From: a virus | Taxonomy: Duplodnaviria; Heunggongvirae; Uroviricota; Caudoviricetes | Virus record (IMG/VR): IMGVR_UViG_3300044638_005715 | Coordinates: 103,398 to 137,218 of that record | Direction: 5' to 3' (one strand) | Length of the DNA stretch: 33,821 bases | In this document: piece by piece, positions 1 through 26,749 of the stretch | Position numbering within the stretch: the stretch's first letter is position 1 | How the letters are laid out: every line of letters starts with the position of its first letter | Made by a program: the position numbers and the translations under genes | Notes under the pieces: generated by a model | Seen by the model: the letters and a program-made list of their open reading frames with translations, nothing else | The model's database searches: none | Told to the model about the DNA's origin: nothing

Positions 1-685
1 AGCAGATTTTGTGAAAATGCTTATACCACTGTCAATAGATTGATTTTGTATAAATAAATTAGATGAATCAACGATGGGCTCGCCCACTAAACCAACCTGC
101 CTAATAAACAAATCCATACTATTATCATTACCAATCTGATTTTTAATAAATAATGTGGATGTTTGATCATTATAAATATTACCACTAATACTACCATTAA
201 TAACAATATTTATATTTTGACTTTCATTATATACAACATTATTCATATATAATGGAGTTGAATTTTCTAGGCTTAATTTATCTCCACTTATAACTAATAG
301 TAAACTATTACTATCTGATAAATATTGAGTTCCATTAATCACCAAACTTGCATCAGAATTATTTATAATGCTATTAATTGTAGAACCATATATAAATAGA
401 TTTGATTGTAGATTATTCGATATTGGTAAATCAGACTCTATATATAGTGGCGATATTCCAAATGTATCATTATTCATAAATAAGTCAGCCCCAAGACTAT
501 TACTTATTGAGCCTTCTATAAATAAACTTTCGTTATTTGCATTTGGCTTGTAATCATCTCCTAATATATAAATATTCATATTGCCAGGATTAGAACCTGT
601 AATGTCTAATGGAATATTATTTGTTGAGAATTCGAGTGTTTTAATATATAAATCTATACTAGGTGTGTCATTATCGTTCTTGATA
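1..685 (-). repeat. Tandem 12-18 aa protein repeat, consensus about S/N-x-x-L-F/Y-I-x-G/N, at least 14 copies
   Basis: Translation gives SIDLYIKT, NMNIYILG, NESLFIEG, GADLFMNN, ISPLYIES, QSNLFIYG, DASLVING, SLLLVISG, STPLYMNN, NINIVING, TSTLFIKN, SMDLFIRQ, SSNLFIQN, GISIFTKS. Confidence 0.75.
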
Positions 686-3600
686 AATAAATTCACACTA
701 TTTAAATCATGAATATCATAAGAATATGCATTGTCATTAACTGATAATATATTTAATGCATCGGAATATGTGCCATTAATAATACCGCCCCTATCATTAT
801 TAATTGCACCTATTTGGGGTTTTAATATATTTATGGCATTATTAAGTTGCTCAAATTTATTTGAGGTACTATTGGGCAATGGAATAACTTTCTTATTGAA
901 AGACTTAATAAATGATTCATTGAGTTTAAGTGATGCAGTTTTATTGAATATATTTAGAGACAATGGATCTCTAAAAATTAATCGATCGCCATATAATGAA
1001 TAGCGTCCACTTAATAAGATGTCTAAAACTCTTAAATTTGAATTAGTGTGAAATGTCCTAATACTATCATTATATAAGGATGTTAATGATATGAGGGAAT
1101 AATTTGGATCAGTAATATTAAGAGTTGGTAATATCCTACCCCTATATTCATAATTTTCATAAATAAATAATTGATCTATATAATTTAGAGATCTAAAATA
1201 TTCATTTAAATCTGCATCTATTGTAATTAATGTTTGTTGTGAATTAATTTCACTAAATTCATTTTCGACATCATAACCATTACATATTAACAAACCTCCA
1301 TCATATATAAAACTATCACCAAAATTATCTGATGGCTGATAATAAACATCTAATGATGAAAGTGATTTTTGGCGATTGTCAATCCCAGTCAACCAATATG
1401 CTTTATGATCCGGAAGAGAGATTTTAAGTGGATTAAATATAGATATGTCACGATTATTTCTATTTTCAATGACTCCTGATTTGATATAACTTAATCCATT
1501 ATATGTATAAAAGAATATTTTGGATTTTTCATTTTCAAATAACTGATTATCAAATGGTTGTGAGAAGCCAAAAATTAATTGCCCACCATCGCATAGTAAT
1601 GTTTTAGCAAATTTTTCGCCACGCTCAGATTGACTATCAAATAATTTACCTGGGGTTTTAATTCCATCTTCATGAATTTTTTGAATCTTTGTACCGTTTT
1701 TAAATATATGAATATATCCAGATGATGTAGAGGCAATTTGATTATCTGTTCCAGTATAATTAGTCGCAGGATCTATATTTGGCTCAACAGTTAATAAATT
1801 AGCTTCTGGCCGAATTACATATGGTTTAGTCTTAGAGCTACACGCTACGATAAAATCCCCCCCTATAATATCTAGGGCAACACTTTTTCCAAATGAATCC
1901 ACATATGGATAATAAGATAATTTAGACCATGGAAAATATTGAGAGGGGTAAATAAAATTATATTTGTATCGTGGCACACTATAGAAAAATTCAAAATAGT
2001 TAAAATTATATGCGATAAATCTATTGATTCCATATGTTATGGCTGCCCCTGCAAAATATTTAGTTCTGACTGAATTAACATTATAAGCCAAAAAAGAATC
2101 AGCAATTGAGGCATCTAACACACTGTAATTAAAATAGCCCGGAATATTATCTGAAAAATTATTCCATGGATCATACATATGTAAACACATAGAGCCATAC
2201 CAATATTCAAATCCATCCTTATATTCTATCATGCGAGTATAATTTCCACGAACACCATCTATTATATCATCCATACTATCTGGTTGATAAATAAATAGTT
2301 TTTCTGGACCATAATATGGACTGCAAGAAAGTGGGCAATCAGAGATTTCTGGGTCATTTTTACTGGCATCGAATGTATCTAACAATGTTAAATTTAAATT
2401 TGAATCAATTTCAAATAGATAAGATGAACCATTAAGGGGCTTTACTGGCAAATTAATCTTATCTAAATGTAGGCATGTTTGGGGGCCCCTTTCACCAGCT
2501 AGTAAATAATATTTATTATTATATTTCTTAACATCAATAGAGCACCCAAACCTAAAATTGGTCAAATATGAATTACCTCCCATCCTCCAATCATCTAGGG
2601 CCGATGACATTCCCTGTCGAACTTGAATAAGGCCCCTATTTATATCAACATTATTTATTTCGTTATCGTTATGCCTTCCTGTATATGGTGGTACTTGAGC
2701 ATCCTGAATGCCCACATTATAATCAATTTCAAAGATTCCATTATATGAATTAATATTATTAAATTCACTTCTAATTAAATTACCACTAGTAAAAGATGTG
2801 GTTGTTAAATTTACCACATTATTATTAACAGTGTATGACCCATATCTATTTCTACCATTTGGAGAGAAAACACTTTTTATATATTGCCATCTTCCCAAAT
2901 CTCCACCATAGATATTTCCTATGCATGACCATCTCAAATTAATCGATGACAATCCAGAGATGTCAGTTCTTTTAGTAAATTTATCATCTTCATATATGAC
3001 AAATTGATTAGAGTTAGCAATTTGAACATATTTTATGCCATTAATATGCTCATATGAAGATCCAGTAATTTGAATAATATCCCCATCTACTAATTTGTGA
3101 TTATTAGAAATAAGATATGGGGTGGTAATCTGTAAACATGTTCCTGATTTAGTTTTTACTATATCTATCTTGCCACAATTATAAACTGGTGTATATTTAA
3201 TTAATGATATTTCTAATTCTACATCCATGTAATATTCTGAATATCCATTAGCAATTTCTGAGGACCCATCATAAATTAAATCACCAGTCTTTGGAAGAGT
3301 CAAGCTAGGCAAGAAGGATAAAAAATTATATTTATCATTATAGGGGTCGTTTGTGTAATAAGCATCTTGTCCAATTAATAAATTGTCGGGCCCCATAAAT
3401 TGATAACGATTTACTAGCTGTGAAAAATTAATTCCAGAGACGGGTACATAAAAGTCAACCCCATTATAATCAATTGATTTATATTTTATTCTAAGGAATA
3501 AATTTGAAATATCGTAATTTACACTAGGGAAAGATTCATATGCATTGGGAGGGGCCAAGTCATAATCATAGGCTAATCCATTTAAATTTAAATCTGGTAA

Positions 3601-3972
3601 ATAAATACGCCCGTCTGTTCTATATTCAGTCTGTACAGAATCATAAAATACGTTTGTTTTAATATAATAAAATATTTTTCCAGTGGTGGTAATATTAGTA
3701 ATAGACTTATTAATATCTGTATATTCACCATAAGAGATAAAAGCAATATCATCTATGGCCCTAATATCCGAAACCTTATTCCGTATATTTAAATAGGAGT
3801 GGGCACCAAAACCCTGCACATTATCTATGTTTGTTTTCTCAAGGGATGTTAAGCCACCGTCCCAATTCGTAAAATGTTTAATGGGTAATTTAGAATGTAA
3901 ATATAAGTTGGTTAAATTGGAATCTGGCCCAGCATTTCTAATAAACAAACTTAATGATTCTCTATTTTCCAT
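1..3972 (-). CDS. Large virion/tail-associated protein (>1324 aa, 3'-truncated by window edge) with FG-GAP-like propeller blades, an FCCH-like beta domain and C-terminal LFI repeats
   Basis: Not in the ORF track. ATG at 3972 overlaps the TMP stop (TAATG). I read all 1324 codons to position 1 and found no stop. Starts MENRESLSLFIRNAGPDS. Contains RFGCSIDV..ILLAGERG..GSSYLFE, SFGKSVALD..GYIHIF, KFAKTLLCDGGQLIFG and NFGDSFIYDGGLLICNG. Product inferred from motifs and position directly after the TMP. Confidence 0.85.
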   Translation of the reverse strand, partial: MENRESLSLFIRNAGPDSNLTNLYLHSKLPIKHFTNWDGGLTSLEKTNIDNVQGFGAHSYLNIRNKVSDIRAIDDIAFISYGEYTDINKSITNITTTGKIFYYIKTNVFYDSVQTEYRTDGRIYLPDLNLNGLAYDYDLAPPNAYESFPSVNYDISNLFLRIKYKSIDYNGVDFYVPVSGINFSQLVNRYQFMGPDNLLIGQDAYYTNDPYNDKYNFLSFLPSLTLPKTGDLIYDGSSEIANGYSEYYMDVELEISLIKYTPVYNCGKIDIVKTKSGTCLQITTPYLISNNHKLVDGDIIQITGSSYEHINGIKYVQIANSNQFVIYEDDKFTKRTDISGLSSINLRWSCIGNIYGGDLGRWQYIKSVFSPNGRNRYGSYTVNNNVVNLTTTSFTSGNLIRSEFNNINSYNGIFEIDYNVGIQDAQVPPYTGRHNDNEINNVDINRGLIQVRQGMSSALDDWRMGGNSYLTNFRFGCSIDVKKYNNKYYLLAGERGPQTCLHLDKINLPVKPLNGSSYLFEIDSNLNLTLLDTFDASKNDPEISDCPLSCSPYYGPEKLFIYQPDSMDDIIDGVRGNYTRMIEYKDGFEYWYGSMCLHMYDPWNNFSDNIPGYFNYSVLDASIADSFLAYNVNSVRTKYFAGAAITYGINRFIAYNFNYFEFFYSVPRYKYNFIYPSQYFPWSKLSYYPYVDSFGKSVALDIIGGDFIVACSSKTKPYVIRPEANLLTVEPNIDPATNYTGTDNQIASTSSGYIHIFKNGTKIQKIHEDGIKTPGKLFDSQSERGEKFAKTLLCDGGQLIFGFSQPFDNQLFENEKSKIFFYTYNGLSYIKSGVIENRNNRDISIFNPLKISLPDHKAYWLTGIDNRQKSLSSLDVYYQPSDNFGDSFIYDGGLLICNGYDVENEFSEINSQQTLITIDADLNEYFRSLNYIDQLFIYENYEYRGRILPTLNITDPNYSLISLTSLYNDSIRTFHTNSNLRVLDILLSGRYSLYGDRLIFRDPLSLNIFNKTASLKLNESFIKSFNKKVIPLPNSTSNKFEQLNNAINILKPQIGAINNDRGGIINGTYSDALNILSVNDNAYSYDIHDLNSVNLFIKNDNDTPSIDLYIKTLEFSTNNIPLDITGSNPGNMNIYILGDDYKPNANNESLFIEGSISNSLGADLFMNNDTFGISPLYIESDLPISNNLQSNLFIYGSTINSIINNSDASLVINGTQYLSDSNSLLLVISGDKLSLENSTPLYMNNVVYNESQNINIVINGSISGNIYNDQTSTLFIKNQIGNDNSMDLFIRQVGLVGEPIVDSSNLFIQNQSIDSGISIFTKSA

Positions 3973-6900
3973 TATACCTTCCTATCTAAATGCTTCTTAA
4001 CTTCTTCAACAACTAGATTTGAAATTGCCTGCTTAAACTCTTCTTTCATCCTACCTATATCTAGGCCACCAATATTTAAAATTCCATCAAATTTTACAGT
4101 ATGTTCCATTTTCATTCCATTTAATGTATTAACAACCTTTTCTATTTTTCCAGAAATCATATTGATGTTTTCTGCTATTTTAGTTAAACCGGCAACATCA
4201 ACAAATGGTTGTTGCATATTCCCCTGTGCCTGCATTGGTCTTTGTGGGGCGGCTACTGGTGCTACAACCTGATTTTGATTTTGTGGTTGGGCCCTACCTA
4301 CAATCGGCATTTGTCCACGACCAACAATTGGTGCCCCACCAAAAACAGGCCCCTGTTGTGCAATAATATTACGGCCCACATTTAATCCACCCCTATTTAA
4401 TTGTTGTGCAATATCTCTTTGGGATCGAGCCGCATCTCTACGTGACTGACGTTCGCCCCTTCGATTTTCTATAAATGATGGTTTTTGTCTTTGTACGGGT
4501 GGCCCGACTGGCATAGTTGTCTCAAATATATCAGCACCAGCACCTAAATCCGCAAAGGATTGTGGTTTTAGATTTGCGGGCCTTGCTATATTTGCTCTTT
4601 CTTGTTCGATCTGTTTATTTATTCTTTCAGCCTCTTCAATTTTACGTTGAGTTTCCGGATTACTATATTTATCTCTAATTCTCTGTTGACGATCTAAGTC
4701 TACTATTAACTTTTCATTTTTTTGCTTCTCAAGTTTCTTTTTCTCTTGTTCATCAGCAAGAATTAATTTCTGCTTATCTTGAATTAATTTATCCAATTCC
4801 TTAGTTCTTTCCTCTTCACTACTTGATCCAAATATTTTTAATTTTGGCTTTATATCCCGTACAGATTGCACAGTGCCACCCTGAGCTTTTTTCTGAATAT
4901 TTCCATTATTCATTGCTATTAAATTGTATTGGCCAATTTCTTTAACTGCCCTTTTATTCATGACGAATTCACCGGGAGTAAGTAATGCTGGAACAGTATC
5001 AGAATTACCAGCCCCAGGAACCCTACCACCAGAATTAAATTTGTTGGCATACATAGATTCTGCCATATTAAGCATATCTAAGAATTTAACTATTCTTGGA
5101 TCATTTTGAACTAATGAAGTTGAAATTTTACTTTTAGTATTAGTAATATGAGATTCTATATTTTGATAGTTTTGCTTTTCTATATCTCTTAAATTCATTA
5201 ATTTTTTATAATCATTTTGCAAACTATCAATTTCATGGTTTTTTGTTATATTTTCTACCAATCTAGTAGTTTCTGGAAAAAACTTCGCAGATGAACTTTG
5301 ATTTCTAATTACAGAGTCAAAAATAGAAGCAAAAGATTCTTTCTTTCCCGCTGGACCCGATTGTAATAAATATTTAAATCTTTCCTGATCTTGCTTACCA
5401 AGCTTAGAAATATCCTTCATATATGCAATCATATATTCTTTAGATTGACTTATAGAATCTTTATAGTAATCAAATGCATGTCCTAATTCATGACCAAAGA
5501 CATTTATACCCGAATCATTTTTTAATAATATTTCTTTATTTGCATCCCTATATAATCCTTTTACATTATTAAAACTAAAATTATCAGCATATCCTCTTGG
5601 CTGTTGAAATCTTAATTCAGGATCAATATCTATTAATGACGGTCCACGCTTAACGGATAAACCAGAATTAATTAAATCATCTAATATTGTTTCTGGAATT
5701 TGTTTATTAGACAACGCCTTGATATCTTGCCCAGTATAATTTTTAACTATACCGCCACTATTCATCTTTTGCATCATTCCGGTGCCATATTTTTTAACGG
5801 CATCTTTTCGCATAACAAATTCTCCCGGTGTTAATAATGCCTCAACATTATCTGAATTACCTACACCAGGAACTTTTCCACCCATATTAAATTTTAATGG
5901 GGAATTTCCAATTCTATTTTGAAAATTAGCAAAAGTATTTTTTATTAAATTAGCAGCATTCATTAATGTATTAGCTGCTGTCATTTCAATATTAATCAAT
6001 GCATTATTAGCAGCTTGTTCTTGCTGTGATATTGCAGTTAATGATGCGATTAGCTTATCCTGTTCAGATGTTGTAGCTGCCCCAACAAATTGTGCCGCCT
6101 GTTTAATAGTAGCACCAGGAACCATTCTCAAGAAATCCTGTGCTAACAAACTCCTTCTTATATCTTTTCCAGTCATACCACCAGTTAATTCTACATCTGA
6201 AAGTGATTCCAAAAGTGATGATACACGGCCCCTCATTTCATCATTAAGTGTTTGAAAGCTACCAGTCATTATACTAGTTTGTAAGGCAGCAAAATCCATA
6301 CTCATTGCATTTCTAGACTCGGCCCCACCAAGTATAAATTCCTCTATTTTTGAGTTCTTTTGATTGATTCCATTTTGGATTTTTTCAAATTTACTCATCA
6401 CATCATTAGTTAGTTCAGACTGATCAGATAATTCCCTCAATCTATCAGTAGTTAATTTAAGTTGTTCACTCAATTTATTAAATTTAACAACCTGATCAGA
6501 ACCAGTTATATTAGATCTTGCTAATATGTTTAATTCTCTTTGTGCATTTTTAGCGGCATTAGATAAATCACTTATATTATTTGCATTAATTCCAAATCTA
6601 TTCAATGGAATCTGTGCGGCAGCATTTCTATTTGCTTGCCTTCTTGCCATATCATTACGCCCAGGAAAATTATCTCCCAATATCTTAGATATATTATCTT
6701 GCAATCTATTAGATATGTTTAGAGAATTTTTTTGAAGCTCACTAACTTTAGCAAATTGAGCATTCGTTTGCTCTATTGTTTTAGATAATTGAGCAAGTTG
6801 ATTTTCCATTAAGGAAGCGGACTTATTAATAACATCTATGTATGACTGAGAATCAGTAATAACAGACTCTAATAATTGATTTATAAGTTCCTGTGTAATT

Positions 6901-9900
6901 ATAGTATTAGCACCTTGCTCTTTAGCAATTTTATTAAATGCAAGAGATACTTGTTTACCAGCATTAGATCCCGCACCAATTCCTAATGCTTCTAGTAATT
7001 GTTGAGATGTTTGAATAGATCCTGGGCCACTTACTATTTCTGTGTTAAGTAATTTATCTTGTGCGGCTTGAAATATTCTAATTGATTCAGCTATATTAGC
7101 AGAAGCATTCTTTCCATATGACCCTAGATTTTTAGTCATTTCATCTATGGTTCGTAATGAGTCTACATTTAGATCTTTAACTGATGGTAATTGCAATTGC
7201 TTAAAAGACGCTGAACTACCATTAACTGCCGAAAGTAAATTATCTAATGAATTGGAAAATTTTTGATTATCAAACTCTATAGATGAAAGTGTTCTAAAGG
7301 CCCTTACCGTTTCTAGAGCACTCTCTCTTTGTGCTTTTTGTAATGCATTTAATTCTAAGGTGCTTTGCCTTTGTTTTTCATTGGCATCTAATGATTTGCG
7401 TAAGCCCTGTACGAAAGCATCATACGTTTCGCCAACTTTATCTTCCGGCAAAGAGGCTTCCAATGTAGATTTATAATTTACAAGAGCAGGAGATAATTGA
7501 GTAAATATTTGATCAATTGATTTACCTGATTTACCGAATGATTCAGAGGCTTCAAAAATCCCCGACTCTAATTGTGTTCTTGCCCCAGTTAATTTTGTAT
7601 TTTGTTCAGTTAGGGCACCTTGTAATGCTTCCTGATTTTTCTTTTCAATATCAGTAAGTCCACGACTGCTACCAAATTTTCCACCAGTTAAGGTTTGCAT
7701 CCATCCAGGCTCCTGTGATATAACATTCATTTGTGCTGCATTTAATCTAGCACTACTTTGGGCCTTTTTCTGGCTTGTCACTAATTTATTAGTTTCTGAC
7801 GATAAGATAGATAAACTATCAACGGCATCTAGATTTTTTAACTTAGCAATATTAAGTGCGGAATCAAAATCTGATATTGATTTTACGGCAGTATAAGTAG
7901 CATCAACATATGAGTTTACCGCCTCTATTTGTACTTTTGATAATTCATCAAAACTTCCAGCAAATGAACCAAGAGCACCACCGAGGGCACCACCTATCGC
8001 ACCACCAACCATGGTTCCAAAAGGGCCCCCTATAAATGTACCGATAGCGGCCCCTGCTACAGTTCCAATAGTAGTTACTATTAATCCAGTAGACTTTATA
8101 CCAACGGCCCTTTGAGATTCCGCCATAGAATCCAATAGAGTTCTTTGCATATCTCCAATCTTTACTTTATTTCCTGACTCTATGCCCTTTACCAACTTAT
8201 TAAATTCACCCTGTAGTTTTTCGGCATTACTACGAAATTTACTAGCATATAATTCAGTAGCAGATGCACCCAGTGCCATGCCCATAGTTAAACCTACTAC
8301 AGTACCCTTTAACTTAGCAAAAGATTCAGGTAAAACATCACCAAACGCTGTTCCAATACCAAAAATAGCAGAGAATGTCATGGCGGATTGACCAATGGCA
8401 TCAGCCATTGTTTGATCTAGAACACCAAATTGTGATGCTACCTGCCCAATACTTGATGACAATATACTAAAAGTTAATGCAGAACTTGATAATTTAGATG
8501 TAAAATCTTTAATAGCTGCTGGATTAGATCCAAAAGATTGCAATTGGCCCCTTTTTTCTGCAATAAATGCAGATACACCAGTTTTATTTATATCTGGTAA
8601 TCCACTTGCAAAAGCTTTTAAATTCTTAGATCTATCAGTAACTATTTTATCATATGCTTTAATACGGGCCTCTTCTGCATCTGTCCCTTTATTAATTTCT
8701 TCAATAAATAAATCCATTGCTTGACTAAGTTCAGTTCCTTTAACACCGGCAGTGCCCTGTATTCCAAGTGATGAAAATATTGCCTCAGATGTTTTTTTCA
8801 TTTGGCTTTCAGTTTCTGGTGGAGTTACCTTACCCCTATCAGCAATTCCAGACTTATAAGCTATTTGCCTATATAATTCAGTCATACTTGCCCTATTCTC
8901 TTGAACAACTTGTGGATTCACTGCTAGTCTATTAAACCTTCTCGACATTTTAATCGGTGGGTTTTCTAATCCCTCGATATATCCAGATGGATTTGGTTGA
9001 CCACTATATAATGGTGGAAGATTTGACTTTTCACCCATAGTATGAATATAAGCTTTGTATTTTAATTTATTTTGGTATGCTTTATTTAATGATGGATTAG
9101 ATTCTTGAAATCTAGTGTTAGGCATTACACCTGGGGGTGAATTAATTATTGGCTCAGGATATCGCACCATCTGTTCCGCTAAATCGTTTACTGGGCCCTT
9201 TACTCTTGGAGTAGTCGGCGTATTTTGTGATTTAATAATATTTGCAGATATTTTAGATATTGGTTTCTTAACTATATTTTGAGAATTACCACCACCTGTA
9301 TCAAACATAGCATCTGGAATAGGCCCCAACCCATGTAAATCTGCATAATCTGACAAAGCACTAGGAGAAAATGTAGGTCTATTAAGTCTATTAGATAATT
9401 TATCAACTTCTTTTTGGAGTGATGTCTTTTCCTTTTCTAATTTTTTAATTTCACTTCTAGATTGATCCATTTCTTGCATTATGGAAATTTCATTAATTTT
9501 ATTCTGGGCATCCATAATGCGTTTACGGACTCTTTCATTTTCTTTATTACTTAATTCCTTGTATGCATAGCTACTACCTTCCGCAAAATAACTCACAGGA
9601 TTATTATTCATTTGGCTTAGGCGACTATAACCAATCTTTTCAGCAGATGATTTTTTTACAATAAATTCGCCCGGTGTTAACATAGCGGGAACTGTATCAG
9701 TCCCCTTTGCTAATCCGCCCGTTGCAAAGAATTTAACATCATCAATATATTGGCTCAAATCACCAGTGGTATTTTGGGAAATAAAGCGGGGAATTTTTGA
9801 TCTTATAATACTATCGACAGATTTTCTTTCCCTTTGGTATTTAGCATCAGCAGCTACTAAATTCATATCATCCATTTGGGAAAAGATTAGTGATAAATTT

Positions 9901-12900
9901 TTTAAATCACTTGTAAAATCAAAATCATCTCCCTGACCAGGAAGTGGTATATTGGTAAGACTACTAACCAAACCCTCGAATAAATAACCACCTATTGTTC
10001 CTTTTAATCCGGTATCCTTTACCATAAAACCAGCAGTATTCATGAATGCGGATGGATTTATATTTAATTTATTTTTACTTAAAATCGCATCAGCTAAGTC
10101 CATCATAGTATTACTAAGCATCATTTGTAATTGCTCTGAAATAATACTATTTATAGATGTCTTATAATCTTGTCGTATGTTTTCTGTAGAAGGATAAAAG
10201 GCAGGAACATCATTAGCGGCAGCAATATTTAAATCTTTAACTGTTCCCGCTGGTGAAGATTTGATAATACTAGTATCTTTAATTTTATCAAGTTCTTGTT
10301 TATAATTACTACTTAAAATAGTAAATAATGTAGTTGGCCCACTTAATGTCATTGGTTTATTACCCTTACTAGTATTAAACCGAGTCGTAATAGATGGACC
10401 TTCTGCTAGTTTTTTTTCATCAACGAGTCTTTGAGCAGTTTGTTCACTCACCTCTTTATTAAATGCTGATAATTCAGCAGTAGTAACAGATAATGGTGGA
10501 TTATTATTATATTTTGAGGCAATAATATTTTGTGCTGATGTAGTGAAATATTCATCAATATCAACATCATCATTGTTTGGGCTCTTAATAGTATAACCAA
10601 GACTAATAGATTTAGCCAATGATATAGGGCTAATAGATGAATACTTTTCAGTTAGTGATTGACCACCCTGTATGGAATTTAAACCCTTTTGTAATAAGTC
10701 ATCCTTAATACTTTTACTAACTTGTACTGATTTGCCCTTTGGCTGTGTATCCATATATTCCTTGGGTTTACCGCCAACAGGATTCATGAATAAACCAGCA
10801 AATTTATCCCTCTTTACATTTAGAACAACACCACCATCTGCAAAATATTGAGTATATTTAGAATCAATCAATTCCTTAAATTTATCTCTATCATATCTTC
10901 TATATTTATCAATGTAAACACTAATTGTCTTAGTTGTTGGATAAATATCATCAATATTTGGACTTAATGAATTCAAATAGCCCCTTTTAGAATTTAATGA
11001 CTTGGTTAATATAGTTAAATATGAATCAGATGTTGTAGACATTGATTTACCAAAATTTCTATCACTTTTAATCTCACCAAATGGTAAATCTAGAAAATCA
11101 TTATTTGTATTAACCTTTTTACCAGTTCTTTTACTAACTATTTTTTCAAATGCTAATCCCTTTGCTAAGTTAGAAGCTTCACCACTTTTTTCCTCTGATA
11201 TTTTAGCATTGACATAATTCTTTAAAGATTTCTTATCTGAACTTCTTAGTGGGTCTACTTCAACTGTATCATAATTCAATAATAAATTATCATCATGTCC
11301 ACCACGCTGTTTTCCCCAATTCTTCTTTGAATCAATTATTTGCCTCAAAGTTTTAATTCCCTGAATACCATCCCTTGGATATAATTGGCTCGTTTTAACT
11401 GGGCCACCTTCAGCAAAATATTGTGGGTTGGCATTTATTTTTTGCAGATTAGATAATCCAATTTGTCTAACAGATGATTTCTTTATAACGAACTCACCCG
11501 GTGTTAACATAGCTGGTACAGTATCTGAACTACCAGATCCTGGAATTGAACCACCAGAATTTCTACCAATCACACCTCTGCCACCACCGAATCCACCAGA
11601 AAATATTGATACTAAACCCTTTCCTAATTGTACTGAAGCAAAAGCAGTAAGAAGTGGTAAAATAGGTTCCATAGATTCGGCAACCTTAATCATGGCCGAC
11701 GCTATAGATAAAGATGTTCTAACAAAAAGTTGAAAAGTGTCTGATTTCTGAAATGTTCTAATTAAATCTTGAAATTCTTCCCTAACACGTTTAATCTGAT
11801 TTTCTAATGATTGTTGTGCGATTACCTGATCTTCTGTCAAGCTATTAGTAGAGCCCTGTGCAACTGCTAGTGCTTGTTCTGCCAATGTAAATTGTTTAAT
11901 TAACGGAATAACCTTACCGATCTGACGGAAACCACCTAATTCTTCAGTAATGGCCGCAAATCGAATGTCCCGTGGATCAATTTCACTTAGGCCCTGTGAA
12001 ATACGTTTAATGGCCTCAAATGGGCCAATGAACTTACCTTCTAAATCTTGTAATTCAATACCAAGTTTTTGTAATTGTGATATTGTTTCAACACGCTGAA
12101 TACGTGTAAAAATGGTCCTCAAACCGGTTGCAATACTTTCCGCAGATTCGCGAGTAGTAGCTCGTACAGAAGTGAAAAGGGACAATAATTCATTAAGGGA
12201 GCCACCAGCCGCCTCAAATGAACCCCCCGCCTTTCGAATGGTAGAAATTAAGTCTGATGATTCTACGGCGAATGCCTTAGAAACTTCGTTAATAGCACCA
12301 AGTGCCTGTTCTAGGAATTTAACATCGCCTCCAGCCCTAATCGCATCTTTTCGGAACTGACTTAATACTGCAATAGCACCTTCGGTAGTTTCTTCTATGT
12401 CATCGAATGACGCCGCTAATTGTGTTTTTGCCAATACTTCTAATGAGTCTTTTGTTTGTTTAGCTGAAAAACCAGCTTGTGATAATATGATAGCCGTATC
12501 TAATAGACCATCAGATGATAGACCAAGTGATTTAGATAAATTTACAACCTCAGTATTAAGATCTTGTAATTGTGCAACACTTTTCCCAGTAACCTGCGAC
12601 AATACCAACATCTTCTTTTCGAATTGTATAGCTTCCTTTAGAGATGATTTAATAGATCTTGCTAAACCAACGAATGTGCCAGTAGCAAAACTAATAGCAG
12701 CAAATCGACGGGCCCCAGTTCCAATAATATCAGCAAGGGCCGAATATTCTTTACGTGCAATCTTTGAATTCTTAGTAATATTTTGAATTTCTTGATTGAC
12801 TCTATTTAGGGCCCTTGGATCAGTTTGGGCCCTTACATCTATATTGACATTACCAAATTCACTTTTTAATTGATTTACAACCTTCGATAAATTACGAGGG

Positions 12901-12941
12901 CTCTGTAAATTCATTTCCAATGTCAAAGCATATTTAGCCAT
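3972..12941 (-). CDS. Tape measure protein, 2989 aa, with embedded cargo domains
   Basis: N-terminal TP901-family TMP signature (EAIQFEKKM..LSQVTG..L..EV..LS..G......A..LSQAGF; INEVSKAFAVESSDL; LRTIFTRI). Long helical stretches, a Gly-zipper hydrophobic segment and four GG..D.V.A.LTPGEF modules. Position after the tail tube and chaperone genes. GGGG RBS 6 nt upstream. Confidence 0.93.
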   Translation of the reverse strand: MAKYALTLEMNLQSPRNLSKVVNQLKSEFGNVNIDVRAQTDPRALNRVNQEIQNITKNSKIARKEYSALADIIGTGARRFAAISFATGTFVGLARSIKSSLKEAIQFEKKMLVLSQVTGKSVAQLQDLNTEVVNLSKSLGLSSDGLLDTAIILSQAGFSAKQTKDSLEVLAKTQLAASFDDIEETTEGAIAVLSQFRKDAIRAGGDVKFLEQALGAINEVSKAFAVESSDLISTIRKAGGSFEAAGGSLNELLSLFTSVRATTRESAESIATGLRTIFTRIQRVETISQLQKLGIELQDLEGKFIGPFEAIKRISQGLSEIDPRDIRFAAITEELGGFRQIGKVIPLIKQFTLAEQALAVAQGSTNSLTEDQVIAQQSLENQIKRVREEFQDLIRTFQKSDTFQLFVRTSLSIASAMIKVAESMEPILPLLTAFASVQLGKGLVSIFSGGFGGGRGVIGRNSGGSIPGSGSSDTVPAMLTPGEFVIKKSSVRQIGLSNLQKINANPQYFAEGGPVKTSQLYPRDGIQGIKTLRQIIDSKKNWGKQRGGHDDNLLLNYDTVEVDPLRSSDKKSLKNYVNAKISEEKSGEASNLAKGLAFEKIVSKRTGKKVNTNNDFLDLPFGEIKSDRNFGKSMSTTSDSYLTILTKSLNSKRGYLNSLSPNIDDIYPTTKTISVYIDKYRRYDRDKFKELIDSKYTQYFADGGVVLNVKRDKFAGLFMNPVGGKPKEYMDTQPKGKSVQVSKSIKDDLLQKGLNSIQGGQSLTEKYSSISPISLAKSISLGYTIKSPNNDDVDIDEYFTTSAQNIIASKYNNNPPLSVTTAELSAFNKEVSEQTAQRLVDEKKLAEGPSITTRFNTSKGNKPMTLSGPTTLFTILSSNYKQELDKIKDTSIIKSSPAGTVKDLNIAAANDVPAFYPSTENIRQDYKTSINSIISEQLQMMLSNTMMDLADAILSKNKLNINPSAFMNTAGFMVKDTGLKGTIGGYLFEGLVSSLTNIPLPGQGDDFDFTSDLKNLSLIFSQMDDMNLVAADAKYQRERKSVDSIIRSKIPRFISQNTTGDLSQYIDDVKFFATGGLAKGTDTVPAMLTPGEFIVKKSSAEKIGYSRLSQMNNNPVSYFAEGSSYAYKELSNKENERVRKRIMDAQNKINEISIMQEMDQSRSEIKKLEKEKTSLQKEVDKLSNRLNRPTFSPSALSDYADLHGLGPIPDAMFDTGGGNSQNIVKKPISKISANIIKSQNTPTTPRVKGPVNDLAEQMVRYPEPIINSPPGVMPNTRFQESNPSLNKAYQNKLKYKAYIHTMGEKSNLPPLYSGQPNPSGYIEGLENPPIKMSRRFNRLAVNPQVVQENRASMTELYRQIAYKSGIADRGKVTPPETESQMKKTSEAIFSSLGIQGTAGVKGTELSQAMDLFIEEINKGTDAEEARIKAYDKIVTDRSKNLKAFASGLPDINKTGVSAFIAEKRGQLQSFGSNPAAIKDFTSKLSSSALTFSILSSSIGQVASQFGVLDQTMADAIGQSAMTFSAIFGIGTAFGDVLPESFAKLKGTVVGLTMGMALGASATELYASKFRSNAEKLQGEFNKLVKGIESGNKVKIGDMQRTLLDSMAESQRAVGIKSTGLIVTTIGTVAGAAIGTFIGGPFGTMVGGAIGGALGGALGSFAGSFDELSKVQIEAVNSYVDATYTAVKSISDFDSALNIAKLKNLDAVDSLSILSSETNKLVTSQKKAQSSARLNAAQMNVISQEPGWMQTLTGGKFGSSRGLTDIEKKNQEALQGALTEQNTKLTGARTQLESGIFEASESFGKSGKSIDQIFTQLSPALVNYKSTLEASLPEDKVGETYDAFVQGLRKSLDANEKQRQSTLELNALQKAQRESALETVRAFRTLSSIEFDNQKFSNSLDNLLSAVNGSSASFKQLQLPSVKDLNVDSLRTIDEMTKNLGSYGKNASANIAESIRIFQAAQDKLLNTEIVSGPGSIQTSQQLLEALGIGAGSNAGKQVSLAFNKIAKEQGANTIITQELINQLLESVITDSQSYIDVINKSASLMENQLAQLSKTIEQTNAQFAKVSELQKNSLNISNRLQDNISKILGDNFPGRNDMARRQANRNAAAQIPLNRFGINANNISDLSNAAKNAQRELNILARSNITGSDQVVKFNKLSEQLKLTTDRLRELSDQSELTNDVMSKFEKIQNGINQKNSKIEEFILGGAESRNAMSMDFAALQTSIMTGSFQTLNDEMRGRVSSLLESLSDVELTGGMTGKDIRRSLLAQDFLRMVPGATIKQAAQFVGAATTSEQDKLIASLTAISQQEQAANNALINIEMTAANTLMNAANLIKNTFANFQNRIGNSPLKFNMGGKVPGVGNSDNVEALLTPGEFVMRKDAVKKYGTGMMQKMNSGGIVKNYTGQDIKALSNKQIPETILDDLINSGLSVKRGPSLIDIDPELRFQQPRGYADNFSFNNVKGLYRDANKEILLKNDSGINVFGHELGHAFDYYKDSISQSKEYMIAYMKDISKLGKQDQERFKYLLQSGPAGKKESFASIFDSVIRNQSSSAKFFPETTRLVENITKNHEIDSLQNDYKKLMNLRDIEKQNYQNIESHITNTKSKISTSLVQNDPRIVKFLDMLNMAESMYANKFNSGGRVPGAGNSDTVPALLTPGEFVMNKRAVKEIGQYNLIAMNNGNIQKKAQGGTVQSVRDIKPKLKIFGSSSEEERTKELDKLIQDKQKLILADEQEKKKLEKQKNEKLIVDLDRQQRIRDKYSNPETQRKIEEAERINKQIEQERANIARPANLKPQSFADLGAGADIFETTMPVGPPVQRQKPSFIENRRGERQSRRDAARSQRDIAQQLNRGGLNVGRNIIAQQGPVFGGAPIVGRGQMPIVGRAQPQNQNQVVAPVAAPQRPMQAQGNMQQPFVDVAGLTKIAENINMISGKIEKVVNTLNGMKMEHTVKFDGILNIGGLDIGRMKEEFKQAISNLVVEEVKKHLDRKV
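4873..5043 (-). repeat. TMP repeat module 4 (FNSGGRVPGAGNSDTVPALLTPGEFVMNKRAVKEIG..AQGG), TPGEF at aa 2655
   Basis: Direct translation; aligns with modules 1-3. Confidence 0.9.
5750..5892 (-). repeat. TMP repeat module 3 (FNMGGKVPGVGNSDNVEALLTPGEFVMRKDAVKKYG..NSGG), TPGEF at aa 2371
   Basis: Direct translation; shares CCCGGTGTTAA (+ strand) with modules 1 and 2. Confidence 0.9.
9578..9732 (-). repeat. TMP repeat module 2 (FATGGLAKGTDTVPAMLTPGEFIVKKSSAEKIG..YFAEG), TPGEF at aa 1089
   Basis: Direct translation; 17-nt exact match CCCGGTGTTAACATAGC (9670-9686) to module 1 (11497-11513). Confidence 0.9.
11402..11560 (-). repeat. TMP repeat module 1 (NSGGSIPGSGSSDTVPAMLTPGEFVIKKSSVRQIG..YFAEGG), TPGEF at aa 480
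   Basis: Direct translation. A fifth partial copy, YFADGGVV, lies at about 10825-10850. Confidence 0.9.
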
Positions 12942-15232: not shown

Positions 15233-16258
15233 TTAACTCCAATATGATTGGCCGTTACTTACCTTAATATCATTATAAGTGGAATAAGAATAGGTAACAG
15301 TTGCAATACCACCGCCAGTATCGCCCCCTTGGTGACTTACAGAGGTAAGTTTATTTTTATTACCTAAGTTAATTGAGGTTCCCAAAGTATCGCGAATGAG
15401 GATGGACCTAGTCGGGTTGTTTGCCCCAGTTCCAGAAATTGCAATTAAATCACCGCGTGTAGCATTAACTTCGAATTCGCATGTAATTTCGAATGGGAAA
15501 GTTGCATACTTGAAGTAGGGGCCGAATCGACCTTGTTCCAACATGTCTTCGCGGCCAAAGTTGGCAGTAATAGTAACGGACTGTAGACCGCTACCGGGTG
15601 AACCAACTGTATTAAGCTGGGACATAACTTCCGCAGGTATAATTGAGTTTGCTATATCAAACTTGGCCCTACGTGCTACACCAACATTACCAGATGGAGT
15701 GTGTGAACCATTGATAACGGCTGCTGTTGGACCACCGCTACCATATAGAACGGCGGGTGATGATGCCATACCATAATTGGCACTATTCCAGAATTTATTA
15801 TTACCAGTTAATGTGATGGATTCAGTGGCATTACCATTAATTGGATATGTATATGTGACAGAACTTAATGTAACGCCCGAGCACATAACAACATTATTTG
15901 GCGTATTACCAGAAATAGATGAGACGGAATCACTATATAGTGCCAAATATGCATCGCATACAGAATTTGATGCCGACACAACATTGGTTTTACCAATTTC
16001 GCCAACGGCCTGTAGATATAGCAATTTATGACCGTCAATAACCTTTTCGACAGTAATTTCTACTTCAGAAACTTCATCTTCATTACTATATAATTCTACC
16101 TGCCCATATTCAAACACTTGTTCTAGTGTAAAATTGGTATTGAGGCCAGCACTTTGCACGCCCTTCATGACTTCGAATTGGGTGGATGATGCATTATTAT
16201 GACCAGACTTAGCAATAGCTAAGGCTTGACAAGCGTAAAATAGTCTATTATTTGACAT
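15233..16258 (-). CDS. Major tail (tube) protein, 341 aa
   Basis: Beta-rich and G/S/T-rich, tube-like size, strong GGAG RBS, upstream regulatory motif, and synteny between neck genes and chaperones/TMP. Confidence 0.75.
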   Translation of the reverse strand: MSNNRLFYACQALAIAKSGHNNASSTQFEVMKGVQSAGLNTNFTLEQVFEYGQVELYSNEDEVSEVEITVEKVIDGHKLLYLQAVGEIGKTNVVSASNSVCDAYLALYSDSVSSISGNTPNNVVMCSGVTLSSVTYTYPINGNATESITLTGNNKFWNSANYGMASSPAVLYGSGGPTAAVINGSHTPSGNVGVARRAKFDIANSIIPAEVMSQLNTVGSPGSGLQSVTITANFGREDMLEQGRFGPYFKYATFPFEITCEFEVNATRGDLIAISGTGANNPTRSILIRDTLGTSINLGNKNKLTSVSHQGGDTGGGIATVTYSYSTYNDIKVSNGQSYWS

Positions 16259-19702: not shown

Positions 19703-19719
19703 ATATAATTAATTACTCA
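19703..19719 (-). promoter_or_regulatory. 17-nt element TGAGTAATTAATTATAT, copy 2 (35 nt upstream of the holin-like gene)
   Basis: Exact match to 12999-13015. Confidence 0.4.
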
Positions 19720-21769
19720 TAACAACATCAGATAAGATAGCCGATGGCTCATCTGGAACTAATATTGATATAACTTTAGTATCGTATATTTCAGATGATG
19801 ATATTTCTAATTTATATTCTGTATTTCTTAATAATACTAATTCAGCATATCCATTACTATCAGTTGTTGCATTTTGTATGGTATTAATATGAAGTGAGGC
19901 ATTATTTATTTCAAAACAATCAGATAGGCGTGCTATAATATTTGCACCATTAATTGGTAATATGCTTACAGTTCCCTGAGATTTTATAAATAGTTGTAAA
20001 ACACAAAGTTCATCCCCTAAATCTGGTACAACTAATTTTTGTAAATTAATAATTTGACTTAAATCTGCATTTGGCATATTTATAGTAATATCATTAACAG
20101 TTTGATATCCAGTAGGAGTAGTCACACGAACCGTATATGTTTCATTTCCATCAACATTAATACGGGCCACACCATTTTCATTTGTAAAGCCCTTAGCAGT
20201 TTTACCAACTATTGAGAACTGTACATTTTTAACGGCATTGCCATTATCAAGTGCAGTGAATGACAACTGATAGGGCCCGAAACCAGCTATATTTGGTTGA
20301 ACAACACGTAATGTTGCATACATAGTATAGGAACCATTTGTAAATTTATATCTAGCAGTACCCTCTTCTATTGGTCTATCTTGTGATGCATATGATAAGG
20401 CATAATAATATCGCGTACCCTCAGCCCGTAAATATGTTATATTGCCAGCTAAATTTACATATGGGCCGTTATCTATTGATACTTGTCCACTTATAACATC
20501 AGTGTTGTTTGGCCAACTGAATGTTAATGGCTTATCATCATCTAATGATCTTTCTGTAATATATGCTGGATTTGGTTGTAATGCTGTTAATACATTTTGT
20601 GGTAATAGAACTGCTGTTCCTATTGTATTATCAGTAGGGACTCCAACTGCTACTTGGTTAGCTGCTGGTACTATAAGTGTTCCTGTTCGATCACCAAATT
20701 GATAAACAATACCAAAACGAACATCAGAAGTTGCTGGACTTTGATTGCTGATTGAGGAATCAATAAGTGTTTTAGTAGATCCGTTTGGGGTGAGTCGGAA
20801 TTGTGCCGTCGTGTTAGCATTATTCTGTAAAAAAATTGCACCTGATACTGGAATCGCTCCATAAGTTCCAAAAATTAGATTTTTAATAAAAACTCTGGAC
20901 GCTTGATCCGCATTCGTGCTTTGATAGGCTACAGACTGTAAATTGTTACCTCCTGGTCCAAAATCATTTCCGATTGCATTTTCGATATAAATTTGAGTAG
21001 TTCCGCCAGTATTTCTAACAGCGGCTCTACTGCTTAAATTTCCGGCAATTGCATTTACAATGTTTACAGTACCAGACCCCAAAACTAATACGGGTACACC
21101 ATCTGCGGCCCCAGAAAACAAAGCTGTTTGTCCACCATAGGCGTTTGTTATATTAGTCGTACCGGAGCCACTATGAACGACACCATGTACGGTTCCACTT
21201 GTTGTGCCAATCCCATGATAAACGTTATTGACGTTTAAGACGCCGGGTCCAATATTATTAACAATTCCTACTGTAGTGATAAATAGTGCATTAGTTGCTG
21301 AGGTACTTCGTACATCTCTAGTTATGGTTGCAGTTCCAGTACCTTGTAAAAAAAATATGGAAGTAATACCAGTTCCAGACGACCATATAACATCACGACA
21401 TTCTACATTACCTGATCCGGTAATACTATAACATATAACACTATTACTAGGTGCGTTTATTATTAACGCATCCCTGAATGTTACTTTTCCAGATGTATGG
21501 GTAAATCGAAATGCTGTTGTACTGCTTCCATTTATCACAAAATCGCAATCTGTAAATGTTAGATTTCCACCTGCATTGTTTATTTCGGTTTGAGATATTA
21601 AGTAAGATCCTGTACTGGTTGCTTCAAAAGTAATACCAGTAACAGAAATGTTTAAATTGATCGTGAATGTTCCAGTTCGGACTATATCTCCTGGTTGTGG
21701 TTGAACGCCGCCAAAAGTAACGGCATAGTTGTTGTAATTTCCAGTTGCTACAGCGGTTACAATTGCCAT
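19709..21769 (-). CDS. Fibre/adhesin-like virion protein B, 686 aa
   Basis: G/T/N/S-rich beta-helix-like N-terminal half; linker PATSDVRFGIVY..RTGTLIVPAANQVAVGVPTD; two C-terminal Ig/carboxypeptidase-regulatory-like units (FTNENGVARI, TTDSNGYAEL). GGAG RBS. Confidence 0.55.
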   Translation of the reverse strand: MAIVTAVATGNYNNYAVTFGGVQPQPGDIVRTGTFTINLNISVTGITFEATSTGSYLISQTEINNAGGNLTFTDCDFVINGSSTTAFRFTHTSGKVTFRDALIINAPSNSVICYSITGSGNVECRDVIWSSGTGITSIFFLQGTGTATITRDVRSTSATNALFITTVGIVNNIGPGVLNVNNVYHGIGTTSGTVHGVVHSGSGTTNITNAYGGQTALFSGAADGVPVLVLGSGTVNIVNAIAGNLSSRAAVRNTGGTTQIYIENAIGNDFGPGGNNLQSVAYQSTNADQASRVFIKNLIFGTYGAIPVSGAIFLQNNANTTAQFRLTPNGSTKTLIDSSISNQSPATSDVRFGIVYQFGDRTGTLIVPAANQVAVGVPTDNTIGTAVLLPQNVLTALQPNPAYITERSLDDDKPLTFSWPNNTDVISGQVSIDNGPYVNLAGNITYLRAEGTRYYYALSYASQDRPIEEGTARYKFTNGSYTMYATLRVVQPNIAGFGPYQLSFTALDNGNAVKNVQFSIVGKTAKGFTNENGVARINVDGNETYTVRVTTPTGYQTVNDITINMPNADLSQIINLQKLVVPDLGDELCVLQLFIKSQGTVSILPINGANIIARLSDCFEINNASLHINTIQNATTDSNGYAELVLLRNTEYKLEISSSEIYDTKVISILVPDEPSAILSDVVMSN

Positions 21770-26284: not shown

Positions 26285-26749
26285 TTATTGTGTGACAGGT
26301 AGATTAACTTCAACCTTGGCATAACCATCTTGATCTCTGGATGATAAGAATGTGCCAATAACTAGTGCGTTGTTAGCGATATTACTGGTTGCAAGATTTC
26401 CACTTTGGCCAATAAATACGTTCCCACCCGCAACTGGAGTGCCCTGAATTAGGTTGGTAACAACATAACCCTTTCGTAATAGAGTTACCTTCCCATTAAC
26501 CTGAACTTCATTGCGATATGGATTAACACGAACACGGGTTAAATCATAATTCTTAACATCATTTAGTAATATACCAATAGGTCTTACACCAGATGGATTA
26601 GCTGCATAACTTACTATTGCAACACCTTGATCCATAGCTGCTCCTGACCCGCCCGTAACGAGTGATGCGACACCACCACGTTCTGCAACGCTAGTCATGA
26701 AGAAGCTAATATCGGTTTGCATTTCATAACGATCTGTCTTTAAAGCCAT
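26285..26749 (-). CDS. Capsid decoration/cement protein, 154 aa
   Basis: Small Gly-rich beta protein directly before the MCP (PIGILLNDV; VTLLRKGYVVT; IGTFLSSRDQDGYAKVEVNL); strong GGAG RBS. Confidence 0.65.
   Translation of the reverse strand: MALKTDRYEMQTDISFFMTSVAERGGVASLVTGGSGAAMDQGVAIVSYAANPSGVRPIGILLNDVKNYDLTRVRVNPYRNEVQVNGKVTLLRKGYVVTNLIQGTPVAGGNVFIGQSGNLATSNIANNALVIGTFLSSRDQDGYAKVEVNLPVTQ

Follow-up and report, generated by a model that had tools for sequence, protein, structure and literature searches.

A giant phage tape measure protein with four gpH-C-type modules and a peptidase-like insert

Results

A tape measure gene with four module copies

The window analysed here comprises the last 33.8 kb of a 137,218-bp virus contig from IMG/VR, which is about 92% complete and has about 33% G+C. 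All large genes of the window lie on the minus strand and follow the usual order: terminase, capsid cement protein, head and tail genes that could not be annotated, a single open reading frame (ORF) of 2989 amino acids (aa) at 3972-12941, and then the gene of a 1,354-aa protein. The product of the 2989-aa ORF, referred to as P0001, matches Pfam PhageMin_Tail (PF10145; 1e-24, aa 132-326), TIGR01760 (tape_meas_TP901; 8e-26, aa 91-393, above cut-off), and several tape measure protein (TMP) families of PHROG. The gene has the position expected of a structural module, with structural genes upstream on the same strand and the 1,354-aa protein downstream. This order is kept in the relative L007, and the gene is syntenic with the TMP gene of L007. 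Profile matches and gene position identify P0001 as a genuine tail tape measure protein of the TP901 type. It contains no cysteine and only two tryptophans; the 5,002-aa TMP of phage P23-45 is likewise free of cysteine.

P0001 carries four copies of a module of about 60 aa that resembles the C-terminal part of phage lambda gpH. The TPGEF motifs of the copies start at aa 480, 1089, 2371, and 2655, exactly where an earlier reading of the sequence (hereafter the original prediction) had placed them. A hidden Markov model (HMM) built from 143 module copies, all from other proteins, recovers each of the four copies with 74-91 bits (i-E 1e-25 to 1e-30), and the best score among 200 shuffles of P0001 is 4.3 bits. 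A BLAST comparison of P0001 with itself gave no off-diagonal HSPs and was uninformative. The skeleton of the module consists of (F/Y)AxGG, about 10 residues, D-T-V-P-A-M-L-T-P-G-E-F-V-x-x-K...G...L...N, and a second (F/Y)AxGG. An alignment of 147 sequences gives the consensus FAxGG-x-VPG-x-G-x-x-DTVPAMLTPGEFV-x-NK-x-A...G...L...N-x-G....FAxGG, which can be shortened to FAxGG-x(~10)-DTVPAMLTPGEFV-x2-K...G...L...N...FAxGG. In this alignment the G-E pair never varies. Conservation reaches at least 90% for the two GG pairs, D, P-A, L-T-P, V, and N. The second GG is degenerate in two of the four P0001 copies, namely modules 2 and 3. The bare YFADGG that had also been predicted is present between modules 1 and 2, and its region matches only the C-terminal flank of the HMM.

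The AlphaFold2 (AF2) monomer model of the module based on the 147-row alignment is a coil with a short helix-turn-helix over the K...N part, where the predicted local distance difference test (pLDDT) is 78-89, compared with 67.5 overall. As the model is mostly coil plus a short hairpin, we describe the module as an old and strongly conserved linear element, not an autonomous globular domain that folds by itself. A homotrimer prediction with three copies and the same alignment scored 0.04 and 0.01, which weighs neither for nor against self-association.

Distribution of the module

The module profile was searched against 1.84 billion representative proteins and retrieved 20,174 of them at E ≤ 1e-3, with 1,087 reaching the stricter E ≤ 1e-30. 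The best 150 matches are proteins of 1.6-7.9 kaa with 3-11 copies, extending to 7,872 aa with 10-11 copies, and more than 1,000 representative clusters score as multi-copy. In most of the best 150, the first copy is located at aa ~450-660, right after the N-terminal domain (N-domain), and the last copy about 70-210 aa (mostly 100-130) before the C-terminal end, comparable to lambda. Carriers are phages of Actinobacteria, Proteobacteria, and uncultured hosts. Among cultured phages, a single-sequence tblastn search returned 153 records, chiefly from phages of Gordonia or Mycobacterium and often with matches at two sites in one genome; FASGG mini-copies occur in cultured multi-module TMPs as well, including gp17 of Gordonia phage Nymphadora. 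Six-frame scans of several genomes, including the whole 137-kb contig, found modules confined to the TMP gene. With a profile made of the window copies and lambda's own, the JBD30 TMP contains one copy.

No Pfam model spans the module. PF09718 stops at gpH residue 701, just upstream of it, and the lambda-specific TIGR01541 is the only spanning model in the Pfam/TIGR check. A published description of the repeated module was not found in the literature, and the repeated junction module appears to be undescribed in print. P0001 would be a cargo-bearing TMP of a known kind whose new aspect is the repeated junction module. Aside from the TMPs above, Synechococcus phage S-SM2 (GU071095 / NC_015279, 190 kb) has a module match at 7674-7811 in a 'putative bacteriophage-related transmembrane protein', with 65% identity over 46 aa.

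Modules as ends of conserved blocks

P0001 was aligned to 234 other multi-module TMPs, a set picked by module content. The alignments contain 360 high-scoring segment pairs (HSPs) with a length of 150 aa or more. The end of 69% of them falls no further than 35 aa from a module C-edge, versus about 9.5% expected, and only 9% start at a module N-edge, which is the chance level. The N-domain is common to about 210 of the 234 proteins. Directly behind module 1 the coverage drops, with three proteins left by aa 750, and it collapses likewise after modules 2, 3, and 4, with a gradual rise toward each module from its upstream side. Since the alignments end at module C-edges and their starts are at chance, the modules cap conserved blocks. 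In these alignments the module shows itself as a block terminator that is followed by variable material. Together with the module-bounded indels described below, they support the predicted role of the module as a reusable junction in the evolutionary sense.

The TMPs closest to P0001 are P0020 (2722 aa) and P0101 (2549 aa), and P0156 (2524 aa) is further off. The contig bearing P0020 is syntenic with the window, and the neighbouring proteins are 54-91% identical, which serves as genome baseline for the segment identities in Table 1. The original prediction expected segments between modules to vary among close relatives. This holds for S1, the interval between modules 1 and 2 (15-56% identity), and for S3, the domain between modules 3 and 4 (absent), as against 81-93% in the N-domain, 66-79% to P0020 ahead of module 3, and 72-81% at the C-terminal end; the points at which identity to P0020 switches between high and low fall on modules in only two of four cases.

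Two indels are bounded by modules. The first one is at the C-terminal side, where P0001 has module 3, S3, and module 4, and both P0020 and P0101 have a single module; it amounts to one extra unit of zincin cargo plus module. S3 is absent from these closer relatives, and its only close homologue, in the more distant P0156 (E 1.7e-65), is flanked by two modules. The second indel involves a full module of P0020 at aa 709-773, of which P0001 and P0101 have only (Y/H)FADGG. The gap of P0001 and P0101 against the P0020 module extends exactly from the first FAxGG to the second FAxGG, and the bare YFADGG of P0001 is thus explained by loss of the module core between its two FAxGG flanks.

Three or four modules are retained in P0020 and P0101, and three further IMG/VR relatives have four, two, and four. 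The relative with two, P0004 (1943 aa; L004 7699-13530), has only modules 1 and 2 around the domain that we call X, and no C-terminal copy. The P0004 layout makes the arrangement of module 1, X domain, and module 2 the most persistent part in this lineage. Module 2 is 70-71% identical to its positional counterparts in P0020 and P0101, and its positional orthology is clear. The orthology of module 1 is weaker, as it is 66% identical to module 1 of P0020 and no closer to it than to unrelated modules. A phylogeny of the modules was tried and discarded, the module being too short for resolution.

The S3 domain

S3 contains HELGH at aa 2484-2488 and, about 50 aa downstream, Glu2535 within K-K-E-S-F-A. 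It aligns to a stretch of the P0210 TMP that Pfam calls ATLF, and Glu2535 aligns with the Glu of E-A-F-A in that stretch. In the four-sequence S3 alignment (A3), the two glutamates (E86 and E136 of the alignment) are invariant. The A3 profile matches the catalytic fragment of anthrax lethal factor in the PDB (2l0r, E 4.6e-5) and Pro-Pro endopeptidase (6fpc, E 0.002). The lethal factor match covers only the HExxH region, and a weak second stretch pairs AEFFAEAF of lethal factor with aa ~2555-2575, not with Glu2535. The atlas lead for S3 is ATLF, too. On these matches S3 is credible as a zincin metallopeptidase-like domain of the M34/ATLF kind, very distantly related to the known members and with a peptidase activity that is predicted only.

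Homologues of S3 among the giant TMPs are limited to P0156, P0210, and P0223, and none was found in a set of 5.8 billion proteins at near and longer lengths. Zincins of the S3 kind were counted in 11 of the 237 multi-module TMPs, and the slots that they occupy follow modules 1 to 5. Other enzyme domains in related TMPs are ADP-ribosyltransferase and SprT-like domains.

The X and S1a domains and the ruler body

Of the 237 giant TMPs, 123 contain the X domain, which in nearly all cases is placed between modules 1 and 2, at a median distance of 43 aa before the next module. Its frequency and fixed slot make it a core part of the class rather than swappable cargo. In an alignment of 34 X-type sequences (A6), the Gly and Glu of G-x-x-F-E do not vary, F-D-F and D-A-K are for the most part retained, and the final Lys is conserved in at least 90%. 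The S1a domain is homologous to X (hhalign probability 90.5%, E 1.4e-6). By this profile match, S1a and X are paralogous copies of one unnamed domain that was duplicated in P0001. S1a was found by jackhmmer in only seven proteins. The segment between S1a and X, termed S1bN, is shared only by P0020 and P0101, at 15-38% identity, and has no atlas match.

X and S1a both have the pattern E ... D ... (D/E)-x-K, which resembles the PD-(D/E)xK nuclease motif, and the atlas leads for S1a are restriction-endonuclease-like and weak (0.83-0.84). None of the 34 X members has a Pfam match, and no relevant PDB sequence match was obtained for X. Membership of X and S1a in the PD-(D/E)xK class was rejected for want of Pfam or PDB support and is kept as a motif-level lead. 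As the N-terminal end of the TMP faces the DNA end in the tail, it is conceivable from its position that the X domain plays a 'pilot' role by binding the DNA end.

The 1,218-aa interval between modules 2 and 3 is composed of a coiled coil (1128-1200), a Pro-rich linker (~1201-1440), a Gly-zipper/hydrophobic part (~1561-1700), and about 650 residues of helix-favouring composition (1701-2345). By these features it is ordinary TMP body and not cargo. The prediction that the modules separate unrelated globular segments thus stands in part: S1a and X are homologous to each other, and the interval between modules 2 and 3 is mostly TMP body. The same applies to the claim of interchangeable cargo, which agrees with zincins in different slots and with ADP-ribosyltransferase and SprT-like domains in relatives, and does not extend to the ruler between modules 2 and 3 or to the core domain X. 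The idea that P0001 is a concatenation of mini-TMPs was rejected, since the N-domain profile detects no second N-domain in P0001 outside the modules (best i-E 0.05).

Identity between modules at the DNA level

Modules 1 and 2 of P0001 share 17 identical nucleotides (nt), GCTATGTTAACACCGGG, as had been pointed out before. The chance that the codons at A-M-L-T-P are identical, given identical residues, is about 2%. The P0001 modules are pairwise only 53-64% identical in DNA. In a comparison of 18 modules from five phages, exact matches extend to 14-18 nt, as opposed to a maximum of 13 nt in random gene windows. This microhomology follows from amino-acid conservation. It could allow rare unequal or illegitimate exchange, with which both indels are consistent. 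At this level of identity the module is not a dedicated DNA site, the microhomology being a by-product of protein conservation, and the predicted use of the module as a recombination handle is weak.

A codon bias was observed at the same place. The Pro-Gly pair of all four TPGEF motifs is encoded by CCG-GGN or CCC-GGT, giving CCSGG at window positions 4972, 5824, 9670, and 11497 (modules 4, 3, 2, and 1, respectively). The other nine Pro-Gly pairs of the TMP gene use CCA or CCT; four of four versus none of nine corresponds to about 1 in 715. CCG and CCC together make up only 17% of the Pro codons of the gene. In three relatives, CCSGG is found at TPGEF in five of ten modules. The bias could reflect a translational pause, a DNA-level signal, or chance.

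Feature map and neighbouring genes

The features of P0001 and the annotated structural genes upstream are collected in Table 1. The last ~110 aa of P0001 are presumed to be the end that binds the tail tip or hub, by analogy with the C-termini of gpH, Douge gp16, and T5 pb2 (PMC12617516, PMC13033339, PMC10038345).

Table 1. Features of P0001 and of the window, with identities of P0001 segments to the TMPs P0020 and P0101
Feature	Residues (aa)	Window position	Strand	Remark
Whole TMP gene, P0001	1-2989	3972..12941	(-)	Single open frame, 2989 aa
N-terminal TMP domain	1-426	11664..12941	(-)	Pfam/TIGR01760; includes PhageMin_Tail at aa 132-326
Hydrophobic Gly-rich stretch	427-454	11580..11663	(-)	25% Gly; directly before module 1, cf. 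lambda gpH
Module 1	455-518	11388..11579	(-)	Independent HMM 90.5 bits
S1a domain	560-699	10845..11264	(-)	X-domain paralogue; rare cargo
YFADGG	699-704	10830..10847	(-)	Remnant C-flank of lost module
S1bN	706-950	10092..10826	(-)	Lineage-specific segment
X domain	951-1065	9747..10091	(-)	G-x-x-F-E ... F-D-F ... D-A-K ... K
Module 2	1066-1127	9561..9746	(-)	Independent HMM 74.3 bits; second GG degenerate (YFAEGS)
Ruler body	1128-2345	5907..9560	(-)	Composition, hydropathy, weak Pfam glycine-zipper/coiled-coil-type matches
Module 3	2346-2407	5721..5906	(-)	Independent HMM 77.6 bits; second GG degenerate
S3 zincin-like domain	~2440-2560	5262..5624	(-)	HELGH 2484-2488, E-S-F-A 2535-2538
Helical hairpin after zincin	~2561-2629	5055..5261	(-)	AF2 helices, pLDDT 74-91
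Module 4	2630-2693	4863..5054	(-)	Independent HMM 91.4 bits
C-terminal tail	2694-2989	3975..4862	(-)	Last ~110 aa conserved
Segment in N-domain	61-420			81-93% identity to P0020/P0101
S1a region	541-720			48-56% identity to P0020/P0101
S1b				15-38% identity to P0020/P0101
Segment after module 2	1141-1440			Almost unalignable to P0020/P0101
Segment before module 3	2161-2340			60-79% identity to P0020/P0101
C-terminal end	2881-2989			60-81% identity to P0020/P0101
Capsid cement protein		26285-26749	(-)	Upstream of TMP gene
Terminase		30354-32318	(-)	Upstream of TMP gene

PHROG and Pfam annotation of the neighbouring genes yielded almost nothing. By far the most conserved neighbour is a 341-aa protein at 15233-16258 (-), which is 90.6% identical to its L007 counterpart. 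Pfam and PHROG give no match for it; the major tail tube protein is its probable identity. Two proteins of ~650-690 aa in the structural region, at 19709-21769 (-) and 22338-24302 (-), have weak CarboxypepD_reg / prealbumin-like and G8-domain matches and may be decoration or fibre proteins. Adjoining the terminase region, a GDP-mannose 4,6-dehydratase gene (32784-33779 (-), Pfam 5e-80) is likely to serve the phage in auxiliary metabolism or in making surface sugars.

Comparison with known systems

Lambda gpH has a single module at aa ~728-787 of its 853 aa, near the C-terminus as the original prediction had stated, and the profile of the window copies plus lambda's own detects it with an E-value of 5.7e-24. 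In gpH a hydrophobic Gly-rich stretch precedes the module and a short tip-binding tail follows it, and modules 1 and 4 of P0001 repeat this layout. Different from the one copy of gpH, P0001 has four copies, a remnant, and inserted domains, and its N-domain is PhageMin_Tail instead of Pfam TMP_2. Residues ~690-817 of gpH are invisible in the virion cryo-electron microscopy (cryo-EM) structure, and the maturation cleavage takes place in the Gly-rich region just upstream, at a site that is unmapped (PMC12617516).

Multi-module TMPs are also found in cultured phages, in proteins shorter than P0001. Gp16 of mycobacteriophage Douge (1,699 aa; PDB 8zdo) has two full modules at aa 965-1012 and 1412-1461; only its last 42 residues are modelled, and the module is not mentioned (PMC13033339). 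Nymphadora gp17 (2,142 aa) has three at aa 951-1004, 1629-1675, and 1967-2022, and no Pfam domain was detected in it.

Other TMPs are known to carry or release enzymes. Mycobacteriophage TM4 provides an example of a TMP with a built-in enzyme, having a peptidoglycan-hydrolase motif. The T5 TMP pb2 is cut after R1127 near a hydrophobic stretch, and its C-terminal piece, which has a muralytic metallopeptidase motif, is retained in the tail and then ejected (PMC10038345). At the cut, R|AEGG is like the FAxGG flank, and an enzymatic piece is split off the TMP; in contrast to P0001, pb2 has one cut and one cargo at the C-terminal end. Gp96 of Thermus phage P23-45 is a giant TMP that delivers a working enzyme, the virion RNA polymerase fused to it, into the host (PMC10770324), whereas its cargo is N-terminal and of another kind. 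Both proteins were considered as module carriers and rejected, since pb2 has no match to the module HMM and no gpH-C-type module was found in gp96.

Polyvalent proteins are large virion-borne strings of unrelated enzymatic domains, often including a zincin, that are delivered with the DNA (Iyer et al. 2017, PMC5512222). They differ in being mostly packaged in the head, and the survey contains no mention of tape measure proteins and no repeated junction module (PMC5512222). P0001 has one credible enzyme domain, the zincin, and two copies of an uncharacterised domain, and its delivery is assumed from TMPs in general. The likeness to anthrax lethal factor and Pro-Pro endopeptidase (MEROPS M34, Pfam ATLF) concerns S3 only and consists of HExxH and a downstream Glu in E-x-F-A; S3 differs in being embedded in a phage TMP, distant, and below the PF07737 threshold on P0001.

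Discussion

We see roughly even chances that the module works as a flexible joint located in a processing region or beside it, with non-ruler inserts travelling in the tube and exiting together with the TMP. We arrive at this estimate because the module is an unstructured element, is conserved across unrelated hosts, and in lambda is situated at the start of the cut-off fragment. P0001 would then be a chain of blocks, each closed at its C-terminal end by one gpH-C-type module, and segments would enter or leave the gene just downstream of a module with the aid of the 14-18 nt microhomologies. In the particle, the modules would act as flexible joints, which by lambda analogy would lie at or next to maturation-cleavage regions and would allow non-ruler inserts to be housed in the tail tube and to exit along with the TMP on infection. 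The M34-like zincin would act in the host envelope or cytoplasm, and the N-domain, the region of hydrophobic and glycine-zipper character, the ruler-like body, and the last ~110 aa would perform the ordinary jobs of ruler, channel, and tip binding. On the domain content, the TMP ruler probably also carries enzymes into the host.

Several points weigh against this reading. Direct evidence of cleavage, flexibility, or delivery is nil for every multi-module TMP, and the cut site of lambda itself is unmapped (PMC12617516). T5 pb2, whose cut is mapped after R1127 and before AEGG, gives no module-HMM match even at E ≤ 100. The stronger claims are further weakened by the degenerate second GG of modules 2 and 3, and by the fact that no Prok-JAB, a JAB/MPN peptidase that could cut after GG, was found in the 137-kb genome. 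P0004 is devoid of a C-terminal module, so this copy is not obligatory. The choice of the comparison set by module content may inflate the statistic of HSP end points, the breakpoints between high and low identity to P0020 meet modules at only two of four places, and unequal evolutionary rates without exchange could account for part of the mosaic. As for the zincin, PF07737 has no match on P0001 itself at E ≤ 0.1, and the AF2 model of S3 from the four-row alignment has a pLDDT of 55.8 with the catalytic half below 50.

A bolder reading, which is that of the original prediction (where the modules were also proposed as docking sites), takes P0001 as a true polyprotein, in which every module is proteolytic and the TMP is cut at maturation or ejection into four or five independent proteins acting in the host. 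The lambda module is at the N-terminal end of the cleaved gpHC fragment, and a cut after FATGG would yield an 80.1-kDa gpH* and a 12.2-kDa piece versus the published ~78 and ~14 kDa (PMC12617516). The R|AEGG at which T5 pb2 is cut looks like the FAxGG flank (PMC10038345), conservation of each GG motif exceeds 90%, and the module is predicted to be largely unstructured and hence accessible. Moreover, zincin domains are thought to process polyvalent virion proteins (PMC5512222). Nevertheless, we consider it doubtful that P0001 is processed in this manner, as cleavage has been reported for no multi-module TMP, the 137-kb genome yielded no JAB-type peptidase, half of the copies have a degenerate second GG, and pb2 gives no HMM match. 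In addition, homology ties the module to the upstream block, whereas in lambda the module goes with the downstream fragment. A related and rather unlikely version regards each module as a self-contained release joint, at which the TMP is cut or unzips on leaving the tail, so that one gene would encode a train of separate proteins swapped by recombination at the joints. The order of delivery would be the DNA-end-proximal X-domain unit, the channel-forming ruler, the metallopeptidase, and the tip-binding tail, and such a joint would also explain the never-mapped cut of gpH into gpH* and gpHC in lambda.

The zincin bears on two further alternatives. S3 might be a protease acting in cis, with the modules of the TMP as its cutting sites, comparable to the MPTase of polyvalent proteins, a concept present in Iyer et al. 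2017 (PMC5512222). S3 does sit between two modules, and its M34 relatives include Pro-Pro endopeptidase, the TMP having Pro-rich linkers. However, P0020 and P0101 keep three or four modules without S3, and a zincin is found in only 11 of 237 multi-module TMPs, which makes a cis-acting role very improbable. At the other extreme, P0001 could be a pure ruler, all 2989 residues of which measure a tail of ~450 nm (0.15 nm per residue), the modules being periodic contact points for the tail assembly chaperone or the tube lumen and the domains being structural. The 5,002-aa TMP of P23-45 does go with an 800-nm tail (PMC10770324), most of aa 1128-2345 resembles ordinary TMP body, and the X domain is a conserved core part that is not swappable. 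Yet the HExxH...E signature of S3 is intact and its profile matches genuine peptidases, S3 is missing entirely from close relatives, and class members of up to 7,872 aa with 10-11 copies would imply tails of more than 1 micrometre. The module is also conserved across phages of Actinobacteria, Proteobacteria, and uncultured hosts, a poor fit with fast-evolving chaperone or tube partners. We therefore regard a pure ruler as distinctly unlikely, less so than a cis-acting S3.

The usual view of TMPs is that they serve as a ruler and form a channel, and that a cell-wall enzyme is occasionally built in. The module described here is a punctuation mark of a very large class of giant TMPs, after which variable and in some cases enzyme-like inserts follow. 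If the joints are processing or release sites, the tail lumen would be a general delivery route for interchangeable enzymes, and tail length could not be read from TMP length. The 40-year-old question of the gpH cut would then become testable through the invariant residues of the module.

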